From Eledone cirrhosa (lineage: Eukaryota), in contig OZ024740.1 of assembly GCA_964016885.1 (NCBI GenBank), forward strand, positions 177,816,001-177,880,000: a stretch of 64,000 nt of DNA. The letters run 5' to 3'. The first letter of the stretch is position 1. Every line of letters begins with the position of its first letter. The position numbers and the translations under genes were made by a program. This document shows, one piece after another, positions 15,163 through 45,652 of this stretch. The notes below the pieces were generated by a model that was not told the DNA's origin, searched no databases, and saw nothing but the letters and a program-made list of their open reading frames with translations.

Positions 15163-17989
15163 AGAATTGAGATCACCCTCAAACAAGATTTGAGAGCTGT
15201 TAGCGAAAAACGCCGATACCTGAAGAAGGTAGATGAGAGAAAAGTGCTTAATAAAAGATTCAGACGAAACCAAACATCAATCTATAGAGATATGAAGAAC
15301 AAAGTAATAAGTGTCACTGAGGCCCCATCCCAGAAAGACATAGATTCCTTTTGGAGCAAAATATGGGATGAAAAGAAGAATTTCAACCAAGATGCAGTGT
15401 GACTAAGAGAAATCCGAAAGAACTATTGCTCCTACACTACGACAAAAACATACGAAATAAGTGAGAGTACCCTTGAGACTGTGATAGGAAAACTCCAAGA
15501 TAAGAAAACACCAGGAAGAGACATGATTGTCGGCTACTGGTACAAAAAACTGATATTCTATCGGAGGTATCTTACTGACCTCTACCAACAAGTTCTTAAG
15601 GGAGATACACTTATACCAGAATGGTTGACATTAGCACAAACATTACAGATCCCTAAGAACAAAGACACCCACTTGGCAAAAAACTACCGATCCATTGCAT
15701 GCCAGAACCTGATGTATAAGATGTATACAGCCTGCCTGAACCTATTCCTCCAAGATCACTGTGAAAATAATAACATCATCACAGATGAACAAGCAGCTAG
15801 AAAGAAAGGGGTTTGGGGATGTGCTGAACAACTCCTAATAAACAAAACTGCGATGTCGGAGGTGCGACAACTTAGGAGGAATATGGCTACAGTCTGGCTG
15901 GACTACAGGAAAGCTTTCGATTCTGTTCCCCACTCTTGAATGATGCAGGCCCTCTAACTTGCTAAAGTCCCAGACATTATTGTCAGAGCGATAGAGAGGC
16001 TATCTTCTTCTTGGGCTACTATCCTAAGGTTAAAGACAGAGAGGGAGGACTCTATTTTCACTGATAAAATAAATTATCGCATGGGTATATTTCAGGGAGA
16101 CAGTCTCTCTGTGATATTATTCATCTTGTCATTAAACCCCTTGTCCTTTCTGCTCAAGAAATGTGAGGGATACATCATTGGCTCACAGGAAGACAGAAAT
16201 ACGAACCTAACCAATAATTTCTTTGTGGACGATCTGAAACTCTATGACAAGGACATGGATGGGATGAAGAAAAATCTTGACCTGGTTACAACGTTCTCAA
16301 ATGATATAGGAATGGAGTTTGGCCAAGATAAATGCTCATACATGACTGTAAAGCGGGGAAAAACAACAACCCAATCTAGCAACATTGTCATCAATGGCCT
16401 AACTGTTTCACCGATATCTGACGAGGACTGCTACAGATACCTGGGGATAGATGAGAACATATCCTATAATGGTATCTGTAATAAGGAACGCGTAACCAGG
16501 GAATACTACACCCGAATAAGAAAGATTTGGTCATCGGAACTCTCTGCGCAAAACAAAACAATGGCTCACAATGTGTTTGCTGTGCCTGTCCTAACACCAA
16601 CGTTTGGAATACTCAATTGGACGATAGACGAAATCCGAGCAGTTGATGTTGGAACTCTAAAAATACTAAACAACACCGGAAACTTCCACATCAACAGTGA
16701 TATAGACCGCCTTTACTTGAAACGTAAGCAGGGAGGCAGAGGCCTAACATCAGTCCAGGCAGCATTTGAATGTCGCATCATATCCCTCCGACAACATCTA
16801 CGAACCTCGAAGCGTAGGAGCCTGTCGCTCGAGCAAGTCTATCTGCATGAAACAGATAAGATCATGATAGTAGGGAAGGAACTCCTCGAGAGATGTTCCC
16901 TGTATGATAATCAAAAACTCACACCCAGGGAAGTCGCTCAGCAGTATCGCAGTGAATCCATGGATGAAAAACTGCATGCTTATCAGCAAAAAATCATGCA
17001 TGGATATGTTGCCAGGAAGTTCCAGAGTGAGAGTAATATAGATAAGGGAAGTAATCTATCTTTGACCAACAACCGCTATATTGGCTCCCACTTTGAAGGA
17101 TACGCTTTTGCAATCCAAGAACAGGAGATTAAAACGAAATACCTGATTCACAAGAGATAGGGATGCAGGCAAAACACCTAAATGTGATAACAAGTGCAGA
17201 CTCTGCAGAACTAACATCGAGGATATCACCCATGTCATCAGCAGCTGTCCAAAGATGTCATCGCGGTATTATCTACCTATGAGGCATGATGTAGTGGCCA
17301 AAACACTGTAAAATGCAGTTCGTAAAAAAGATAGCCCCGATAATAAACATTAAAAGCTACAACTATCTGGAAGACATCCACGTACATAATATGAAAGAGT
17401 ACTGGTGGAATGTTCCAGTAATTATGATATGGGACAGGGAGAAGAAAGCATGCACAGTAGTGGAAATTAGCTGCCCAGCAGATGCCAATATAATATCAAA
17501 GATTAGTGAAAAGGAGAATATTTATGCAGAACTGATGAGAAATCTGCAGATACTCCACCCTGATTACACCTTCAGATTTATGCCTGTGATTATTGGGGCA
17601 CTGGGGTATGTTAGTAACTGCCTCAATACAAATCTTGAAAAGCTAGGCTTCACAGGAACAGAAAGAACACAACTAGTTAGGAAATTACAAATACAATCCA
17701 TTAATGGAACAATAAAAATATGCAAAGAATTCCAAAATTCTGCATCTAATAACTATATATACACATGTACAGATACAAATCATATGCAAACGCACACATA
17801 TAACTCAAAACATCCACATCCACACATACATTAACATCCATACCTGCACACACATAAATGCATGTAGACATGCATACATATCTATTTAGTTGATGTTGTT
17901 TAAATTCAAATGTGAGAGTGTTGTGTCTATGTTAGAAACCGACTCTCTCTCTGTTGGTAAAAATTTATAAAATTATAAAACCAGAAGAA
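15163..17989 (+). mobile_element. R4/Dong-clade non-LTR retrotransposon (RT + zinc knuckle + restriction-like endonuclease), 5'-truncated and disrupted
   Basis: WLDYRKAFDSVPH, GIFQGDSLS, FFVDDLKLY, YRYLG, CRLC..EDITHVISSC..RHD, IWDREKK..VEISCPAD; several in-frame stops; flanked by (ACAT)n. Confidence 0.9.
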
Positions 17990-28889: not shown

Positions 28890-30370
28890 ATTGTAGTATA
28901 ATAAAAACAAACTAAAATTTGTTCAATTTGATATTGCCAGCTACTATTCCTCCATTTCGCCTTCACTTCTCAATAATGCTCTATCTTTCGCACTTAAATA
29001 TTCTGACATCACCACAGATGAACTTCACATCATTCTCACCGCACGTAAAACCATCCTAGAGTTCAACAACGAATATTGGACCAGAGCCGATACCTCTAAC
29101 AACTTCGACATCACAATGGGAGCATCCGATTCATCCCAATTGACTGATTTAATTGGTATCTTTATTTTGAACTCTTTGAGTCGGAAAATTCCTCAACTTC
29201 GCGGTGGAATTTATCGTGACGATGGACTCTTTACTATCTTAAATTGCAATATAGTTAACCTTAATATTATTAAGAACAATATACGTAATCTCTTTAACCA
29301 ACATAACCTAAAAATTGAATTTGATAACAGTATCAAACTAGCTAATTTCTTGGATGTATCTTTTAATCTTGACACTGGCCTATATTACCCTTACCATAAA
29401 AACAATGAGAACCTAAATTATGTTAACTTTAAATCTAACCATCCTACTAATATCAAGAATGCTATAGTTAGTAATATTGGAAAAAGAATATCTAACCTAT
29501 CTTCTAATAAAAACATCTTTGATGCTAACGCCAATTACTATAATAACGCGCTTTCTAAAGCCGGCTATCCTGATAAAATCAAATATAGTAAAGAAACAAA
29601 TTCTAGAAGAACTTACAGTAGAATAATTAATCATGATCATTCCAATAACTTTAACAAAAGACCTAGATACAAAAACATAATCTGGTATAATGCTCCTTTC
29701 TCCATCTCTATTAATAACAATATTCCTAAATTATTCTTTAGTGCCTTAAATTAATGCTTCCCTCCCTCACATATCTATAGTAAAATATTTAACAAACACA
29801 CCATAAAATTTTCTTATTCTACATCCTCCAACATTTCCAACATTATCTCTAAACACAACAATAAAATACTAAATACTAAATCTCTTCCTTCCAACACTGA
29901 ATTTCATAATAATAGTACTCCCGACGTCATTGTAAACCCTAGGCTAATTTCTACAAACCCAAATACAACGTCAAACACAACTTCGCTAAATGTTCATAAT
30001 CCCACTCTAAATCAAGAAACTATTATTCCTATCGCAAATAACTTCTCCAATCCAATTCCTTCTATAGATAACACTAGGTCACTCATTAATAATCTCTCTA
30101 ATTGCAATTGCAATTGCCCTATTAAAAATAAATGTCCTCTCAACAACCATTGTCTTGATAAAAACTTAATTTACGAATGTAAAGTTATAACTGACACCAA
30201 TTCCTTCACCTATTTTGGCTCCACTTCCACCTCTTTTAAAGTTCGTCTTTATAACCATCATTCATCTTTTAAATACAAACTTAAAAGAACCAACACGGCT
30301 CTCTCAGAACTCATATGGTCCTTGAAAGACAAAAACATTAAATATAGCATCTTTTGGAAGAAGATTTCTT
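28890..30370 (+). mobile_element. Penelope-like element, Naiad-like, truncated at both ends
   Basis: FDITMGASDSSQ, YRDDGL, FLDV, IIWYNAPFS, CNC..KCPLNNHCL..IY..YFGST..FK.RL.NH..SF, LSELIWSLK; TAA stop at 29752-29754. Confidence 0.8.
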
Positions 30371-31267
30371 CGTACAGTAGTATGTATATATATACATACA
30401 TGCACACATATATATATATGCACGTATCGGTTTACCTAACATTTATTACAATGCTCGGTTTGTTTGTTTGTAAACAAACAAACAGCCCGAATTACGCCGT
30501 ACAGTGTTTAGGCAACCACGTCACCCTTTTGTTCAACACTGACACAGGAACGATGTACCAGTTTCAAGCTTATTAGCTATCGTCAGCATCGTAAACCTTC
30601 CTGCCAGATGGTTGAACGTCTGAAAGTATATACTTTCCTTATGCATATTAACGGCTGAGCAGCCTAATTTGCATATCGAGTGAGTTCAGTCGGCCGGGCA
30701 CACCGAAAACGATAAATGGAATAGAATGAAACGAAATTTCATTTCTCACTCTTAGGACGGCACTTACTGGTGACGTGGTTGCCTAAACACTGTACGGCGT
30801 AATTCGGGCTTTTGTTTGTTTACAAACAAACAAACCGAGCATTGTAATAAATGTTCGGTAAACGGATACGTGCATATATATATATGTGTGCATGTATGTA
30901 TATATATACATACTACTGTACGTCTGTATACATATAGGTATGTACGTATACATACATACTTACATTTAAGTAAGTGCCGTACTAAGAGTGAGAAATGAAA
31001 TTTCGTTTCATTCTATTCCATATATATATATATAACGAAGGAAATGTGGTAAGGAACCAGATGGACCATAACGCACCAAAGTACTCAATACTTAGGGTAG
31101 TAGAGTGGGTAATAGGAACGAGTAGGACCCCGTTCCTATATATATTGAGAAAGGTTCTGGACAACAGGCAGTAGCTAAATGCCAGTTGTAGTCCGATATT
31201 TCCTAAAATAACCGGCCCAAAGCAATATCAAAGTTAATCGTGGTAAACAGACAAGTAATAATAATTG

Positions 31268-31545
31268 TTTCTACTTTTGGCACAAGGCCAGCAATTACAC
31301 AGTACATACTGGTACTTTATTTTATCGACCCCGTAAGGATGAAAGGCAAAGTTAACCTTGGCGGGATTTGAACTCAGAATAATTATAATTATTATTACAC
31401 AAGGATGAGTTCAAATCCCGCCGAGGTTAACTTTGCCTTTCATCCTTACGGGGTCGATAAAATAAAGTACCAGTCACGCACTGGAGTCGATTTAATCGAT
31501 TTCCCCCTCCTCAAAATTGTTGACCTTGTGCCTATATAAGAAGCC
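31268..31545. mobile_element. two SINE copies in inverted orientation
   Basis: 31268-31380 and 31405-31545 are reverse complements over the ggtactttat...gaactca core. Confidence 0.8.
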
Positions 31546-31765
31546 ATTAATATTACACAAGGTACAGTGACAATCGCTTTGTGTTAACTTTGATTGAGAA
31601 ATGGTAATTTGATATATAGCTACCCGTACAGTTGTGTGCACAGTTATACATGCGTGAGCACACGTATTCGCGCAAATGCATGCCTATTATATTTTAAAAT
31701 TTTAACTATTCATCATCTGTGTCAGTGTGTGTACGTGTTTTGGAAACCATTGGTAGCATATACAT

Positions 31766-31860
31766 CAGAGGTTCTCAAACATTTGGGACCCCCCCCCCAC
31801 CTCACGGCCACGTAATACCCTCAGCGCCCCCACCTTTATTTCCAGAGAGACCTGCCTACA
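31766..31860 (+). mobile_element. hAT-like terminal fragment
   Basis: CAGAGGTTCTCAAAC start typical of hAT/Charlie TIRs; no partner TIR seen. Confidence 0.35.
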
Positions 31861-31907
31861 CGTAAATTGTAAATAATATATAAATAAAATCGTTAATTCA
31901 TATAATT

Positions 31908-32335
31908 GTTTCTACTTTTGGCACAAGGCCAGCAATTATCCCAGTGCATTACTGGTACTTTATTTTATCGACCCCGTAAGGATAAAAGGCAAAGTTAACC
32001 TCGGTGGGATTTAAACTCAGACCGTAAAGGGACGTAACTCTCTGCTAGAGAGCATGGCATCCGACCCTCTACCGATACTGCCAATCCACCGCCCTTATAA
32101 TATAATATAATGTAATATAATATAAGGGTTTCTTATATAGGCACAAAGCTAGCAATTTTGGGGGAGGGGAAATCGATTAAATCGACTCCAGTGCATGACT
32201 GGTACTTTATTTTATCGACCCCGTAAGGATGAAAGGCAAAGTTAACCTCGGCGGGATTTGAACTCAGATCATAGAGGGCCGTAATTCTATGTTACAAAGC
32301 ATAGCGTCCGTCTCTCTACCGATACTACCATTCCA
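31908..32335 (-). mobile_element. two tandem SINE copies
   Basis: Same family core as 4147-4690. Confidence 0.8.
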
Positions 32336-34505: not shown

Positions 34506-34873
34506 TTAAGGCTTTGTGGTTAAGGTATTCGTCTCACAACCGTAAGGTGGTATCTTTGAGCAAGACACTTTATTTCATATTGCTTCGGTCAACTCAGCTG
34601 GCAAAAATGAGTTGTACCTGTAAATCGAAGGGCCAGCCTTGTTACGTTCGGTGTCACGCTGAATCTTCCAGAGAACTATGTTAAGGGTACGTCCGTCTGT
34701 CTGTGAATGGTCAGCCACTTGCACTTTAATTTTACGAGCAGGCTGTTCCGTTGATCGGATCAATTGCAACACTCATCGTCGCAACCCATGGAGTGGTAGT
34801 AAAATATACATACATATATATATATATATATATACATTTTTTTTCTTCCTAATAATCGTCTTTTTCTCCCTGT

Positions 34874-34903
<30 letters not shown>

Positions 34904-34909
<6 letters not shown>

Positions 34910-37900
34910 ATAAATGCTCTGAAATAGCGATATATATGTGAATATAGACATAGAATATTCGAAAATATTCTGTATGTTTATAATAAACATTTTGAAGACC
35001 TAATCGCTATAGAATAGAATACGTCACGTATTACAATTAGATTCTCGATAAAAGCAAGGGAAGTAATCTACGCGTTTCATTCTCGTAAGAAATCATCAGG
35101 ACTACATATCCAGTGCTTTCATCGAGAATGACACAGCTAGAGACTTATAGAATACTTAGCTGCGTACAGGAACTGGTTTGAAAGAGCGGTTGCCGGTCCG
35201 GCAGAAATTAGAAATTGGAATAAATGCTCTGAAATAGCGATATATATGTGAATATAGACATAGAATATTCGAAAATATTCTGTATGTTTATAATAAACAT
35301 TTTGAAGACCTAATCGCTATAGAATAGAATACGTCACGTATTACAATTAGATTCTCGATAAAAGCAAGGGAAGTAATCTACGCGTTTCATTCTCGTAAGA
35401 AATCATCAGGACTACATATCCAGTGCTTTCATCGAGAATGACACAGCTAGAGACTTATAGAATACTTAGCTGCGTACAGGAACTGGTTTGAAAGAGCGGT
35501 TGCCGGTCCGGCAGAAATTAGAAATTGGAATAAATGCTCTGAAATAGCGATATATATGTGAATATAGACATAGAATATTCGAAAATATTCTGTATGTTTA
35601 TAATAAACATTTTGAAGACCTAATCGCTATAGAATAGAATACGTCACGTATTACAATTAGATTCTCGATAAAAGCAAGGGAAGTAATCTACGCGTTTCAT
35701 TCTCGTAAGAAATCATCAGGACTACATATCCAGTGCTTTCATCGAGAATGACACAGCTAGAGACTTATAGAATACTTAGCTGCGTACAGGAACTGGTTTG
35801 AAAGAGCGGTTGCCGGTCCGGCAGAAATTAGAAATTGGAATAAATGCTCTGAAATAGCGATATATATGTGAATATAGACATAGAATATTCGAAAATATTC
35901 TGTATGTTTATAATAAACATTTTGAAGACCTAATCGCTATAGAATAGAATACGTCACGTATTACAATTAGATTCTCGATAAAAGCAAGGGAAGTAATCTA
36001 CGCGTTTCATTCTCGTAAGAAATCATCAGGACTACATATCCAGTGCTTTCATCGAGAATGACACAGCTAGAGACTTATAGAATACTTAGCTGCGTACAGG
36101 AACTGGTTTGAAAGAGCGGTTGCCGGTCCGGCAGAAATTAGAAATTGGAATAAATGCTCTGAAATAGCGATATATATGTGAATATAGACATAGAATATTC
36201 GAAAATATTCTGTATGTTTATAATAAACATTTTGAAGACCTAATCGCTATAGAATAGAATACGTCACGTATTACAATTAGATTCTCGATAAAAGCAAGGG
36301 AAGTAATCTACGCGTTTCATTCTCGTAAGAAATCATCAGGACTACATATCCAGTGCTTTCATCGAGAATGACACAGCTAGAGACTTATAGAATACTTAGC
36401 TGCGTACAGGAACTGGTTTGAAAGAGCGGTTGCCGGTCCGGCAGAAATTAGAAATTGGAATAAATGCTCTGAAATAGCGATATATATGTGAATATAGACA
36501 TAGAATATTCGAAAATATTCTGTATGTTTATAATAAACATTTTGAAGACCTAATCGCTATAGAATAGAATACGTCACGTATTACAATTAGATTCTCGATA
36601 AAAGCAAGGGAAGTAATCTACGCGTTTCATTCTCGTAAGAAATCATCAGGACTACATATCCAGTGCTTTCATCGAGAATGACACAGCTAGAGACTTATAG
36701 AATACTTAGCTGCGTACAGGAACTGGTTTGAAAGAGCGGTTGCCGGTCCGGCAGAAATTAGAAATTGGAATAAATGCTCTGAAATAGCGATATATATGTG
36801 AATATAGACATAGAATATTCGAAAATATTCTGTATGTTTATAATAAACATTTTGAAGACCTAATCGCTATAGAATAGAATACGTCACGTATTACAATTAG
36901 ATTCTCGATAAAAGCAAGGGAAGTAATCTACGCGTTTCATTCTCGTAAGAAATCATCAGGACTACATATCCAGTGCTTTCATCGAGAATGACACAGCTAG
37001 AGACTTATAGAATACTTAGCTGCGTACAGGAACTGGTTTGAAAGAGCGGTTGCCGGTCCGGCAGAAATTAGAAATTGGAATAAATGCTCTGAAATAGCGA
37101 TATATATGTGAATATAGACATAGAATATTCGAAAATATTCTGTATGTTTATAATAAACATTTTGAAGACCTAATCGCTATAGAATAGAATACGTCACGTA
37201 TTACAATTAGATTCTCGATAAAAGCAAGGGAAGTAATCTACGCGTTTCATTCTCGTAAGAAATCATCAGGACTACATATCCAGTGCTTTCATCGAGAATG
37301 ACACAGCTAGAGACTTATAGAATACTTAGCTGCGTACAGGAACTGGTTTGAAAGAGCGGTTGCCGGTCCGGCAGAAATTAGAAATTGGAATAAATGCTCT
37401 GAAATAGCGATATATATGTGAATATAGACATAGAATATTCGAAAATATTCTGTATGTTTATAATAAACATTTTGAAGACCTAATCGCTATAGAATAGAAT
37501 ACGTCACGTATTACAATTAGATTCTCGATAAAAGCAAGGGAAGTAATCTACGCGTTTCATTCTCGTAAGAAATCATCAGGACTACATATCCAGTGCTTTC
37601 ATCGAGAATGACACAGCTAGAGACTTATAGAATACTTAGCTGCGTACAGGAACTGGTTTGAAAGAGCGGTTGCCGGTCCGGCAGAAATTAGAAATTGGAA
37701 TAAATGCTCTGAAATAGCGATATATATGTGAATATAGACATAGAATATTCGAAAATATTCTGTATGTTTATAATAAACATTTTGAAGACCTAATCGCTAT
37801 AGAATAGAATACGTCACGTATTACAATTAGATTCTCGATAAAAGCAAGGGAAGTAATCTACGCGTTTCATTCTCGTAAGAAATCATCAGGACTACATATC

Positions 37901-37944
37901 CAGTGCTTTCATCGAGAATGACACAGCTAGAGACTTATAGAATA
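34904..37944 (-). repeat. 310-bp tandem array, left arm (~9.8 units; ribozyme on minus strand)
   Basis: Exact 310-bp periodicity (ttggaa ends at 34910, 35220, ...); no differences between units seen by eye. Confidence 0.97.
35063..35105 (-). ncRNA. type I hammerhead ribozyme (first of 10 copies at 310-bp spacing, last at 37853-37895)
   Basis: Reverse complement reads GTAGTC-CTGATGA-tttct-TACG-agaat-GAAAC-GC-GTA-GATTAC. Confidence 0.85.
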
Positions 37945-40761
37945 TTTTCGAATATTCTATGTCTATATTCACATATATATCGCTATTTCAGAGCATTTAT
38001 TCCAATTTCTAATTTCTGCCGGACCGGCAACCGCTCTTTCAAACCAGTTCCTGTACGCAGCTAAGTATTCTATAAGTCTCTAGCTGTGTCATTCTCGATG
38101 AAAGCACTGGATATGTAGTCCTGATGATTTCTTACGAGAATGAAACGCGTAGATTACTTCCCTTGCTTTTATCGAGAATCTAATTGTAATACGTGACGTA
38201 TTCTATTCTATAGCGATTAGGTCTTCAAAATGTTTATTATAAACATACAGAATATTTTCGAATATTCTATGTCTATATTCACATATATATCGCTATTTCA
38301 GAGCATTTATTCCAATTTCTAATTTCTGCCGGACCGGCAACCGCTCTTTCAAACCAGTTCCTGTACGCAGCTAAGTATTCTATAAGTCTCTAGCTGTGTC
38401 ATTCTCGATGAAAGCACTGGATATGTAGTCCTGATGATTTCTTACGAGAATGAAACGCGTAGATTACTTCCCTTGCTTTTATCGAGAATCTAATTGTAAT
38501 ACGTGACGTATTCTATTCTATAGCGATTAGGTCTTCAAAATGTTTATTATAAACATACAGAATATTTTCGAATATTCTATGTCTATATTCACATATATAT
38601 CGCTATTTCAGAGCATTTATTCCAATTTCTAATTTCTGCCGGACCGGCAACCGCTCTTTCAAACCAGTTCCTGTACGCAGCTAAGTATTCTATAAGTTTC
38701 TAGCTGTGTCATTCTCGATGAAAGCACTGGATATGTAGTCCTGATGATTTCTTACGAGAATGAAACGCGTAGATTACTTCCCTTGCTTTTATCGAGAATC
38801 TAATTGTAATACGTGACGTATTCTATTCTATAGCGATTAGGTCTTCAAAATGTTTATTATAAACATACAGAATATTTTCGAATATTCTATGTCTATATTC
38901 ACATATATATCGCTATTTCAGAGCATTTATTCCAATTTCTAATTTCTGCCGGACCGGCAACCGCTCTTTCAAACCAGTTCCTGTACGCAGCTAAGTATTC
39001 TATAAGTCTCTAGCTGTGTCATTCTCGATGAAAGCACTGGATATGTAGTCCTGATGATTTCTTACGAGAATGAAACGCGTAGATTACTTCCCTTGCTTTT
39101 ATCGAGAATCTAATTGTAATACGTGACGTATTCTATTCTATAGCGATTAGGTCTTCAAAATGTTTATTATAAACATACAGAATATTTTCGAATATTCTAT
39201 GTCTATATTCACATATATATCGCTATTTCAGAGCATTTATTCCAATTTCTAATTTCTGCCGGACCGGCAACCGCTCTTTCAAACCAGTTCCTGTACGCAG
39301 CTAAGTATTCTATAAGTCTCTAGCTGTGTCATTCTCGATGAAAGCACTGGATATGTAGTCCTGATGATTTCTTACGAGAATGAAACGCGTAGATTACTTC
39401 CCTTGCTTTTATCGAGAATCTAATTGTAATACGTGACGTATTCTATTCTATAGCGATTAGGTCTTCAAAATGTTTATTATAAACATACAGAATATTTTCG
39501 AATATTCTATGTCTATATTCACATATATATCGCTATTTCAGAGCATTTATTCCAATTTCTAATTTCTGCCGGACCGGCAACCGCTCTTTCAAACCAGTTC
39601 CTGTACGCAGCTAAGTATTCTATAAGTCTCTAGCTGTGTCATTCTCGATGAAAGCACTGGATATGTAGTCCTGATGATTTCTTACGAGAATGAAACGCGT
39701 AGATTACTTCCCTTGCTTTTATCGAGAATCTAATTGTAATACGTGACGTATTCTATTCTATAGCGATTAGGTCTTCAAAATGTTTATTATAAACATACAG
39801 AATATTTTCGAATATTCTATGTCTATATTCACATATATATCGCTATTTCAGAGCATTTATTCCAATTTCTAATTTCTGCCGGACCGGCAACCGCTCTTTC
39901 AAACCAGTTCCTGTACGCAGCTAAGTATTCTATAAGTCTCTAGCTGTGTCATTCTCGATGAAAGCACTGGATATGTAGTCCTGATGATTTCTTACGAGAA
40001 TGAAACGCGTAGATTACTTCCCTTGCTTTTATCGAGAATCTAATTGTAATACGTGACGTATTCTATTCTATAGCGATTAGGTCTTCAAAATGTTTATTAT
40101 AAACATACAGAATATTTTCGAATATTCTATGTCTATATTCACATATATATCGCTATTTCAGAGCATTTATTCCAATTTCTAATTTCTGCCGGACCGGCAA
40201 CCGCTCTTTCAAACCAGTTCCTGTACGCAGCTAAGTATTCTATAAGTCTCTAGCTGTGTCATTCTCGATGAAAGCACTGGATATGTAGTCCTGATGATTT
40301 CTTACGAGAATGAAACGCGTAGATTACTTCCCTTGCTTTTATCGAGAATCTAATTGTAATACGTGACGTATTCTATTCTATAGCGATTAGGTCTTCAAAA
40401 TGTTTATTATAAACATACAGAATATTTTCGAATATTCTATGTCTATATTCACATATATATCGCTATTTCAGAGCATTTATTCCAATTTCTAATTTCTGCC
40501 GGACCGGCAACCGCTCTTTCAAACCAGTTCCTGTACGCAGCTAAGTATTCTATAAGTCTCTAGCTGTGTCATTCTCGATGAAAGCACTGGATATGTAGTC
40601 CTGATGATTTCTTACGAGAATGAAACGCGTAGATTACTTCCCTTGCTTTTATCGAGAATCTAATTGTAATACGTGACGTATTCTATTCTATAGCGATTAG
40701 GTCTTCAAAATGTTTATTATAAACATACAGAATATTTTCGAATATTCTATGTCTATATTCA
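37939..40761 (+). repeat. 310-bp tandem array, right arm (~9.1 units, inverted relative to left arm)
   Basis: Reverse complement of the left-arm unit; one visible variant (C>T at 38698). Confidence 0.97.
38115..38157 (+). ncRNA. type I hammerhead ribozyme (first of 9 copies, last at 40595-40637)
   Basis: Stem I GTAGTC/GATTAC, core CTGATGA 38121-38127, stem II TTCT/AGAA with TACG loop, GAAA 38142-38145, palindromic stem III ACGCGT, GUA cleavage after 38151; stem I extends 38091-38179. Confidence 0.85.
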
Positions 40762-40787
40762 TATATATATATATATATATATATATG

Positions 40788-42405
<1,618 letters not shown>

Positions 42406-43663: not shown

Positions 43664-45652
43664 GCTGGAAGAGGGGAAGGAAAGCTATAAGTAATTAACA
43701 CGTGTGCGTGTGCGTGTGCGTGCGCGCGTGTGTGTGTGTGTGCGTGTGTGTGTGTGTGCGTGCGCGTGTGTGTGTGTGCGTGTGTGTGTGTGTGTGTGTT
43801 CGCGTAGGGTTCCATTATGAGTTAAATCTATTAACATGTGTGTGTGAGTTTGCGTGCGTTTCTGCGTTTGCGTGCTTCAGTGTGTGTGTGTACTTGCGTG
43901 TGGCGTTTCATTTACGCCATTTTTGTCACTGACAACATATTCACTAACTTACATTCATTCCAACCGCTGCTCTTACTGTTACCCCTCTCCCTATACATAC
44001 ACCGTTCGGAAATCACATGCATCGGTTTTTAATTCCTCTCCTCTGTGGCGCCATGTCAGGACACTGATTCTTATAACCAACATGAGAGTTCAATTACACG
44101 GCGACCAAACGTCCGCAGAATTTGCACAGGACATTTTGAAACTTGGCGACGGCAAAATACCTCTGGACGCTGCAGGAGAGTTGGAAGTGTGGCCATTTTC
44201 GACCTCAGTTAATTCTGCGGGGGAACTGAAAGACAAAGTGTTTCCAGATTTGAGAGACAATTACCAGAACCACGCATGGTTGTGTGAAAGAGCAGTGCTA
44301 GCTCCAAAAAACGTTGCTGTTAACAAAACCAACGACCAACTACTGCACTCCCTTCCTGGTGTTCTTCACACTTACAAATCTGTTGACACGATGCCAGATT
44401 CCAATGAAGAGGTGAACTTTCCGCCGGAGTTCCTCAATTCTTTGGAGTCCCCAAGACTACCGCTTCACATGCTTCTCCTTAAAGTTGGCACCCCTGTAAT
44501 GCTGCTGCGGAATTTGGAACCACCAAGAATGTGCAACGGGACACGGCTGGCTGTAAAAAAATTGATGGCACATGTAATCGAGGCAACAATCCTTTCTGGA
44601 TGCGGAAAAGGTGATGATGTCTTCATTCCGAGAATTCCTCTCATTCCCTCGGGAGCAGAAATTTCGTTCACCTTCCGAAGACTCCAATTTCCACTTCGGG
44701 TCAGTTTTGCTATGTCCATCAACAAGTCCCAGAGCCAGACTCTTTCTGTGGCCGAACTTCTTCTGGAAGAACCGTGTTTCTCCCACGGACAATTGTACGT
44801 TGAGTACTCTAGAGTGGGCAGCAGGGAAAGTCTTTTCGCATTTGAACGCCGAGGAAAAACAAGAAACATCGTTTACAACGAGGTGTTGTAAATGCAACAG
44901 CGAGGAGATAGGTCAGTAATCACCATTTCTTTAGCCAGCCTGATGAGCTTTTAACTAAAACGTATGTTTCCCTCGGTTAAAGGTAATCGCCTTCAGAGAG
45001 GAACCCAGCTTGACAATCGGCGCGGTAATTTAAGGCGGCTGAACAAATCGTGAACGCATACAGAGTCATTCTAATGGCTGCCAATGAACGCAACTGAAGT
45101 ACTTTTTGCGGCCGTTGGAGAACGCAGACCTTTCAAGGGCTGCAAGTGAACGATCAAACGGCCCTTTTATGGCCGAAATTGTTGATGGTGAGCCCTCATT
45201 TTTAGGGTGTCAGTGAACGCACACACAACCCTATTTAAGAGGCCCTACTTAAAATTGTTTGATGGCTACTGCAATGGTAAATTCATATCGACCAGCATCT
45301 GCTAAAACAGTGTTATCAGCGCTACAATGGACAGACAGGTACGTTATCGCTCTTCTTAACAAGCCCTGTTTACCTTTACTTATTTTTCCTAACAACATTT
45401 GCTTCCTTTGGTTAAAGGTGAACACACACACGACCCTTTCTTAGCCCCCCTCCCCTTCTTCATGAAATTGGAAATTTATTTTGCTCACAAAAATTTTTTT
45501 TTTTATGAACTCAGAATTGATTTCATCGTGTGTCCCAATTGAAGAATAAATTGAATTTTGAAGAACACATTTCTATACAATATATTTTACTCTTTTCTTC
45601 TAATATGTAAGGAACAATTTCATTCCCGGGCAACGCCAGGTGCCTATGCTAG
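42860..45652 (+). mobile_element. Helitron, internally deleted
   Basis: 5' end tatataaaacagaggatgtctgtc..aaaactcgaga (exact start hidden in (TA)n); 3' ccgggcaacgccagg followed by CTAG|T at 45649-45652; helicase ORF inside. Confidence 0.85.
44030..44891 (+). pseudogene. Helitron RepHel PIF1-like helicase, C-terminal fragment
   Basis: S.LW..V..L.L.TNMR, WLCERAVLAPKN, LKVGTPVMLLRNL.PP..CNGTRL, FIPRIPL.P, RLQFP.R.SFAMSINKSQ.QTL, FSHGQLYV..SRV, T.NIVY.EVL. Confidence 0.92.

Follow-up and report, generated by a model that had tools for sequence, protein, structure and literature searches.

A two-armed hammerhead array in Eledone cirrhosa

The stretch of DNA considered here, referred to as the window, comprises 64,000 nucleotides of Eledone cirrhosa (GenBank assembly GCA_964016885.1, contig OZ024740.1, positions 177,816,001 to 177,880,000 of the forward strand). 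It holds an array in which two arms built from the same 310-nt unit meet back to back between two (AT)n tracts, and which is likely, judged from its sequence, to be the insertion of a young non-coding hammerhead retrozyme with predicted self-cleavage. The left arm (34904-37944) has its ribozyme sense on the minus strand and spans 3,041 bp, or 9.8 units with 10 hammerhead cores, all listed directly. The right arm (37939-40761) has its ribozyme sense on the plus strand and spans 2,823 bp, or 9.1 units with 9 cores, counted from a first core at 38142 and the period. All units are identical at the 310-nt period save for one private substitution in the right arm, at 38698. The outer ends abut the microsatellite (34878-34903 on the left, 40762-40786 on the right) at differing positions of the unit: the left end lies at unit position 165, termed site B, and carries a 35-nt tail, and the right end lies at position 130, termed site A. 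Where the arms meet they share six overlapping bases exactly, AGAATA (37939-37944), which are unit positions 98-103 in sense orientation in the right arm and the complement of positions 225-230 in the left. Taking the window's own unit as the null, random breakpoints would give an overlap of at least 6 bases with a probability of about 0.003. These bases also form the base of the 8-bp stem of a UUCG hairpin of the unit (AGAATATT-TTCG-AATATTCT; 37939-37958, plus strand). An earlier, sequence-only reading of the window had described the strand switch at this microhomology, its place at the base of the hairpin, arms of about 9.8 and 9.1 units and ribozyme strands pointing outward, all of which the arm coordinates, unit positions and core strands bear out. 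It had also called the array a palindrome of about 6 kb, which holds for the inverted arms but not for a perfect central hairpin: the longest inverted pairings, of 2,843 and 2,708 nt, leave 155 and 115 nt unpaired at the centre, and the outer ends differ too.

Animal retrozymes have been described as non-coding tandem units of 150-450 bp with low GC content and one type I hammerhead each, for which Penelope-like helpers and circles have been proposed (PMC7229834; bioRxiv 10.64898/2026.07.22.740005). With its 310-nt period and a GC content of about 0.35, the window unit falls within the range of 150-450 bp and less than 50% GC of animal retrozymes without long terminal repeats (LTRs). The array contains no open frame of at least 130 amino acids (aa) and ends directly on (AT)n, and is thus non-coding and without LTRs, although primer-binding sites and polypurine tracts were not searched for separately. 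By inspection and folding, each of the 19 window units has a hammerhead core, stems I and II and a stem III that is palindromic. The first plus-strand type I motif (38115-38157) is made up of stem I (GTAGTC/GATTAC), the core CTGATGA (38121-38127), stem II, GAAA and the palindromic stem III ACGCGT, with the cut predicted after 38151; this motif was identified by sequence inspection, with stems I and II recovered in the fold. No hammerhead family of Rfam was matched, either at the gathering score or at E values up to 5, and the assignment therefore rests on motif inspection and folding. The common variants near the motif sit in core position 7, in loop II or at the base of stem II. An autonomous Penelope-like element carries an open reading frame with a reverse transcriptase (RT) and a GIY-YIG endonuclease, which the non-coding unit does not; the retrozyme works like such an element but is none. 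When a gapped pattern was used to look for other hammerheads sharing the unit's stem III, the 100 matches listed, of 4,055, were all of a variant of this retrozyme. Of the database entries listed as containing the unit, none is recorded as RNA, which has no bearing on expression.

A few other insertions have small changes at the predicted cleavage site. One unit at locus L038 has a 10-nt deletion across the site, and one-base insertions beside it are fixed throughout each insertion at L051, L058, L082, L088 and L108. These indels possibly reflect heterogeneity at the site of ligation. In the 2026 preprint (bioRxiv 10.64898/2026.07.22.740005), only 1 of 9 Xenopus dimers is reported to have cleaved.

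On the right, the retrozyme occupies the (AT)n at the 3' end of an older Penelope-like element (40787-42208, minus strand) that is 5'-truncated and frameshifted and ends in a C-terminal GIY-YIG. On the left, a 41-nt inverted copy of the 3' end of this element (34838-34878, plus strand) is 100% identical over its 41 nt, so that the retrozyme lies between a 1.4-kb Penelope-like copy and a short inverted piece of it, tail-to-tail. An inverted shared flank piece of at least 16 nt is present at 2 of 66 loci. The 41-nt flank copy either arrived as a short insertion of its own or is an inverted duplication that arose as the retrozyme inserted.

Layout, ends and haplotypes across the family

The window layout is the rule of its family and not a one-off; the genome has about 1,000 young insertions like it. 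The exact pattern of a B end abutting (AT)n has 1,013 matches, against none for the reversed control. The corresponding A-end pattern gave 1,208 matches, a figure that is not taken as a count of ends because the pattern also matches internal units of variant haplotypes. A search of the animal's own genome returned minus-then-plus arrays at most loci. The loci read were the window, 20 chosen by likeness to its unit, the first 40 B ends of contig 1 and 20 A ends without an exact B partner, with four completions; together they hold 82 insertions, one stretch containing two, with an extra neighbouring arm and a 65-nt fragment left uncounted. Two arms are present in 75 of the 82, all of them minus-then-plus and back to back, so that the inverted architecture, which the sequence-only reading had suggested looking for at other loci, recurs with the same polarity. 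Both outer ends could be read in 74 of these and one has an end off the contig. Six insertions are single-armed (5 A, 1 B), and one could not be resolved.

The outer ends follow an equally strict rule. One A end (unit 118-139) is paired with one B end (unit 157-172) in 74 of 74 insertions, with no A/A and no B/B pair. Two of the locus sets were selected on one end with the partner end free to vary, and the A-selected set would have favoured A/A pairs; in the set not selected by its ends the pairing holds at 17 of 17. No divergent B/B pair within 20 kb was present among the first 100 B ends on contig 1. Typically the A end lies at unit 130 or 139 and the B end at 165, an offset of about 35 nt that amounts to a Penelope 'tail' at one end only, and under a strict filter 60 of 66 loci have (AT)n next to both ends. 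At L063/L141 and at L039, retrozyme insertions adjoin older ones and are distinct from them in A/B ends or in haplotype; one such nested junction sits on the UUCG hairpin. One arm, at L085/L143, reaches about 45 units with irregularly repeated variants, which suggests later local duplication or template switching.

Variable positions within the unit allow the two arms of an insertion to be compared. Over 23 variable sites, which define 19 haplotypes, both arms carry the same haplotype at 45 of the 46 testable loci (those at which both arms cover two units), against 4.5 expected and at most 13 in 2,000 permutations. Arm pairs drawn from different loci match in 203 of 2,070 cases. The window's haplotype was found at none of the other loci read. 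At many loci, variants unique to that locus are fixed in every unit of both arms, a pattern suggesting that each insertion passed through a bottleneck of one unit, for which a monomer circle copied repeatedly would be the simplest explanation. The family is very young, since minority substitutions are rare (79 in 203,571 nt).

Junctions between the arms could be scored for microhomology at 62 of 68 loci, using each locus's own unit as the null and dropping 6 for want of a unit or anchor. Among the 50 insert-free junctions, an overlap of at least 3 bp is found in 18 (3.4 expected) and of at least 6 bp in 5 (0.17 expected). Inserts are present at the other 12 of the 62, and five of these, 16-50 nt long, hold unit-derived pieces of 12-21 nt. 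Such a mix of microhomology and templated inserts is characteristic of polymerase-theta end joining. Four loci share one breakpoint pair, which lies at the longest internal complementarity of the unit, and at L093 (1547-1818) a 272-nt stretch of unrelated, GC-richer sequence has been captured between two arms. The spacer between the inner ends of the arms is uniformly distributed (20 nt or less in 8 of 71, 9.4 expected; Kolmogorov-Smirnov p 0.82), and hairpin snap-back is therefore not enriched. Of 100 inner ends, only 2 come within 5 nt of where cleavage is predicted. Because inner ends are spread around the unit, the position of the UUCG hairpin at the window junction looks incidental, and the hairpin was rejected as a cause of the junction. 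Similar arm size was likewise rejected as meaningful: the longer arm is A at 28 and B at 38 of 66 loci, and arm lengths are weakly correlated (Spearman 0.24, p 0.057, n 66). On the spacer, inner-end and arm-length data, the near-equal arms and hairpin-adjacent junction of the window are unremarkable within the family.

Origin of the two arms

It is probable that each insertion derives from one RNA, likely for the most part a monomer circle, that was twin-primed by a Penelope-like RT-endonuclease at a cut (AT)n, with the resulting cDNAs joined by microhomology. The enzyme would cut both strands of the microsatellite, and each cut 3' end would prime one cDNA from a shared RNA, the first cDNA starting at site A (unit 130-139) and the second some 35 nt downstream, at site B; sites A and B are observed as end positions, and priming there is what we infer from them. 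The template would usually be a monomeric circle, and copying it round several times by a rolling-circle mode would give the concatemers. Both cDNAs would be antisense to the ribozyme strand and grow towards each other, and host microhomology-mediated end joining would presumably connect their ends where they are complementary, as at AGAATA in the window, or via short templated inserts. Filling in the gaps would then yield a back-to-back array with its sense strands pointing outward, and single-armed copies would be events in which one priming failed. The observed polarity, the fixed and paired ends, the target, the shared haplotype and the microhomology anchor this model. One of the two origins put forward in the sequence-only reading, two rolling-circle cDNAs primed from opposite target strands, is supported by the polarity, the A/B end pairing and the excess of microhomology, but it needs two additions because of the A/B ends and shared haplotypes, namely two fixed starts about 35 nt apart and a single RNA variant for both arms.

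Several observations weigh against twin priming on a circle. The neighbouring Penelope-like family is old and, as the only family compared, shares no significant sequence with the unit (best match E 0.37). No intact partner was found, the longest open frames being 463 and 680 aa among the 150 best matches of each of two protein searches; these searches returned only the old neighbouring family and only the best candidates were scored, so intact elements of other families may still be present. No opposite-strand joint is listed when one unit is assembled alone from reads. Contigs from a public run of another sample bridge neither the window junction nor the left (AT)n and are without the window's allele at unit 216. 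The arms differ in haplotype at 1 of the 46 loci. The anole protein of PMC11167929 acts in vitro with no strand difference in its start site and no need for ribozyme cleavage. Finally, two loci each show a unit-specific variant in one arm and its mirror image in the other, in register with the A/B starts; a template consisting purely of a monomer circle cannot yield such a pattern. The mirroring keeps 3' register, and its offset equals the A-B distance exactly (26 and 42 nt), as would be the case if the same twin priming took place on one linear, multimeric read-through transcript of a source array with no circle needed, and unprocessed RNA is the main substrate in vitro in the account of PMC11167929. 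A linear template is nevertheless unlikely in view of the locus-unique variants fixed in all units of both arms at many loci, which imply the one-unit bottleneck, and of inner ends that do not pile up at the cleavage site.

Somewhat less probable still is that a single cDNA folds back by self-priming and is copied, with an endonuclease resolving the second arm at the other fixed site. Such a fold-back accounts for the shared haplotype and for the two mirrored variants, it agrees with the nested junction on the UUCG hairpin, and self-priming has been proposed for palindromic head-to-head Penelope junctions in a rotifer (PMC3846280). Short spacers are not in excess, however, and mirroring is seen in only 4 of 47 minority substitutions with a covered mirror position. 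An arm may also be more than twice as long as its partner in either direction (A at 5, B at 23 of 66 loci), and self-priming would therefore need starts at both sites together with resolution at the complementary site. The fold-back during second-strand synthesis that had been offered as the other origin of the window array is disfavoured on the same grounds of uniform spacers, no excess of hairpin junctions and arms of which either may be the longer. A satellite-like history, in which unequal crossover or arm-to-arm conversion later acted on the DNA of initially short insertions to lengthen and invert them, could be read from the irregularly repeated variants of the longest arm, and unequal crossover has been proposed for the local growth of vertebrate retrozymes (bioRxiv 10.64898/2026.07.22.740005). 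Such rearrangement would not be expected to leave fixed A/B ends and a single polarity at 74 of 74 loci, and given also the youth of the copies we consider it very improbable. The most improbable reading is that the window junction is a fold-back read chimera or a misassembly, even though the 41-nt flank piece is mirrored on both sides of the array and the junction is unbridged by independent data. A chimera would mirror the same end, but the window ends are B and A and the flanks diverge after 41 nt; other loci with other breakpoints obey the same end rule. In contigs from another sample there are also loose (AT)n ends at A and at B, along with five joints from minus to plus that use other breakpoints; with short sides of 22-28 letters, these joints are weak evidence. 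The chimera was rejected on the differing ends, the diverging flanks and the end rule, and twin priming by a Penelope-like enzyme is retained as the preferred origin.

Penelope-like elements, known systems and significance

Longer relatives of the right-flank element carry YLDD and score above the Pfam cut-off for GIY-YIG; the Protein Data Bank (PDB) returned no match to one longer copy. Over the final 314 nt, copies of the neighbouring Penelope-like family share about 95% identity with the one in the window. Like the retrozyme, they end at TTCA|(TA)n, some with a further tail, and several form head-to-head pairs. The family shows the footprint and is at most a candidate for the role of active helper. 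About 210 nt before its end it carries a hammerhead-like motif whose stem III is palindromic (window ~40990-41025, minus strand; L112-L140). The core of this motif reads TTGATAA in place of CTGATGA, both partners of the 3-8 pair being changed, and its stem III is ACCGGT, which is altered in the window's copy. At L140 (600-1000), the (AT)n that follows the 3' end of this Penelope-like family has also received a repeat of another family, related to the unit with 78% identity over 157 nt. Elsewhere in the window there are other mobile-element remnants, namely a frame that by eye resembles another Penelope-type RT with no Pfam match (28897-30573), an RVT_1 frame (15958-17157) and a Pif1 helicase fragment (43848-44888), as well as two further inverted pairs with arms of 112 nt (98%; 30371-30922) and 144 nt (93%; 31406-32266).

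In LINE-1 twin priming both target strands prime cDNA on one RNA and the inversion junction carries microhomology. On its linear RNA, LINE-1 starts from the poly(A) end and from internal sites that vary, and it generates target-site duplications. The retrozyme differs in that its two starts lie at fixed positions about 35 nt from each other, and each arm is a many-fold repeat of the whole unit. Another likeness is to Penelope-like elements that encode an endonuclease (EN+), for which an inverted 5'-truncated copy, a 30-40-bp tail at one end and a microsatellite bias have been described and the mechanism called undefined (PMC8557442). The retrozyme insertions carry this signature on three counts, with a head-to-head inverted 5'-truncated copy, a 30-40-bp tail at one end and an AT-rich or microsatellite target. 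As these elements are portrayed, the head-to-head inverted copy, the tail at one end, the (TA)n target and two internal starts are all shared with the window family (PMC8557442; PMC3846280; PMC11167929). In work with a purified Penelope-like protein, AT-rich DNA was nicked and extended on both strands, with two internal RNA start sites bounding the tail (PMC11167929); because that protein showed no strand difference in its start site and no need for ribozyme cleavage, the strict A/B rule and the circle go beyond that work. The retrozyme differs from EN+ elements in having no encoded protein, two arms that are both concatemers, strict A/B pairing and junctions that are not hairpins. The inverted structures of Penelope have themselves been ascribed to endonuclease resolution or to self-priming on an antisense template (PMC8557442; PMC3846280; PMC11167929).

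Animal non-LTR retrozymes share with the window array their non-coding hammerhead tandem units, but the available descriptions are of direct tandem arrays, whereas nearly all insertions here are two-armed with fixed A/B ends in (AT)n. In the text available, the word 'inverted' is absent from the main text of PMC7229834 and occurs only in a reference title of bioRxiv 10.64898/2026.07.22.740005. Literature searches, which covered few subscription journals and no supplements (a limit that may bear on novelty), returned no description of two-armed retrozyme insertions nor of a retrozyme combined with inverted or tailed Penelope features. Retrozymes and the inverted, tailed insertions of Penelope are each known separately, and what would be new is their combination, together with the end-pairing and haplotype rules. 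In the sources cited, the helper enzyme of animal retrozymes has been inferred only from shared ribozymes, co-occurrence and pseudo-LTR homology (PMC7229834; bioRxiv 10.64898/2026.07.22.740005). About 1,000 young insertions of a short polymorphic unit amount to a natural barcode experiment that ties retrozyme mobility to the Penelope footprint.

The end-pairing and haplotype rules also make the Penelope mechanism testable, and the prediction for the existing in vitro system is one A and one B start on opposite strands of the target with a shared template. More broadly and only tentatively, with the odds somewhat against it, an asymmetric pair of Penelope enzymes may prime each target strand from a different fixed site on one circular RNA copied by rolling circle, a reading in which the strict one-A/one-B rule and the shared haplotype are taken as the record of that asymmetry. 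Such priming would then account in general for the Penelope tail and the inverted pseudo-LTR, in place of the models of self-priming and endonuclease resolution, and the roughly 1,000 multi-kb palindromes would each be a potential source of double-stranded RNA (dsRNA). The idea of dsRNA from read-through transcription, raised in the sequence-only reading, follows from the sequence: transcription running in from one flank or the other would produce the antisense arm before the sense arm, with which it could then pair. Inverted Penelope copies have been linked to small interfering RNAs in Drosophila (PMC3681739), and as described there they share with the retrozyme long inverted repeats with the capacity to form dsRNA. 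A further implication is that many of the perfect multi-kb inverted repeats in such genomes are real and not errors of assembly.

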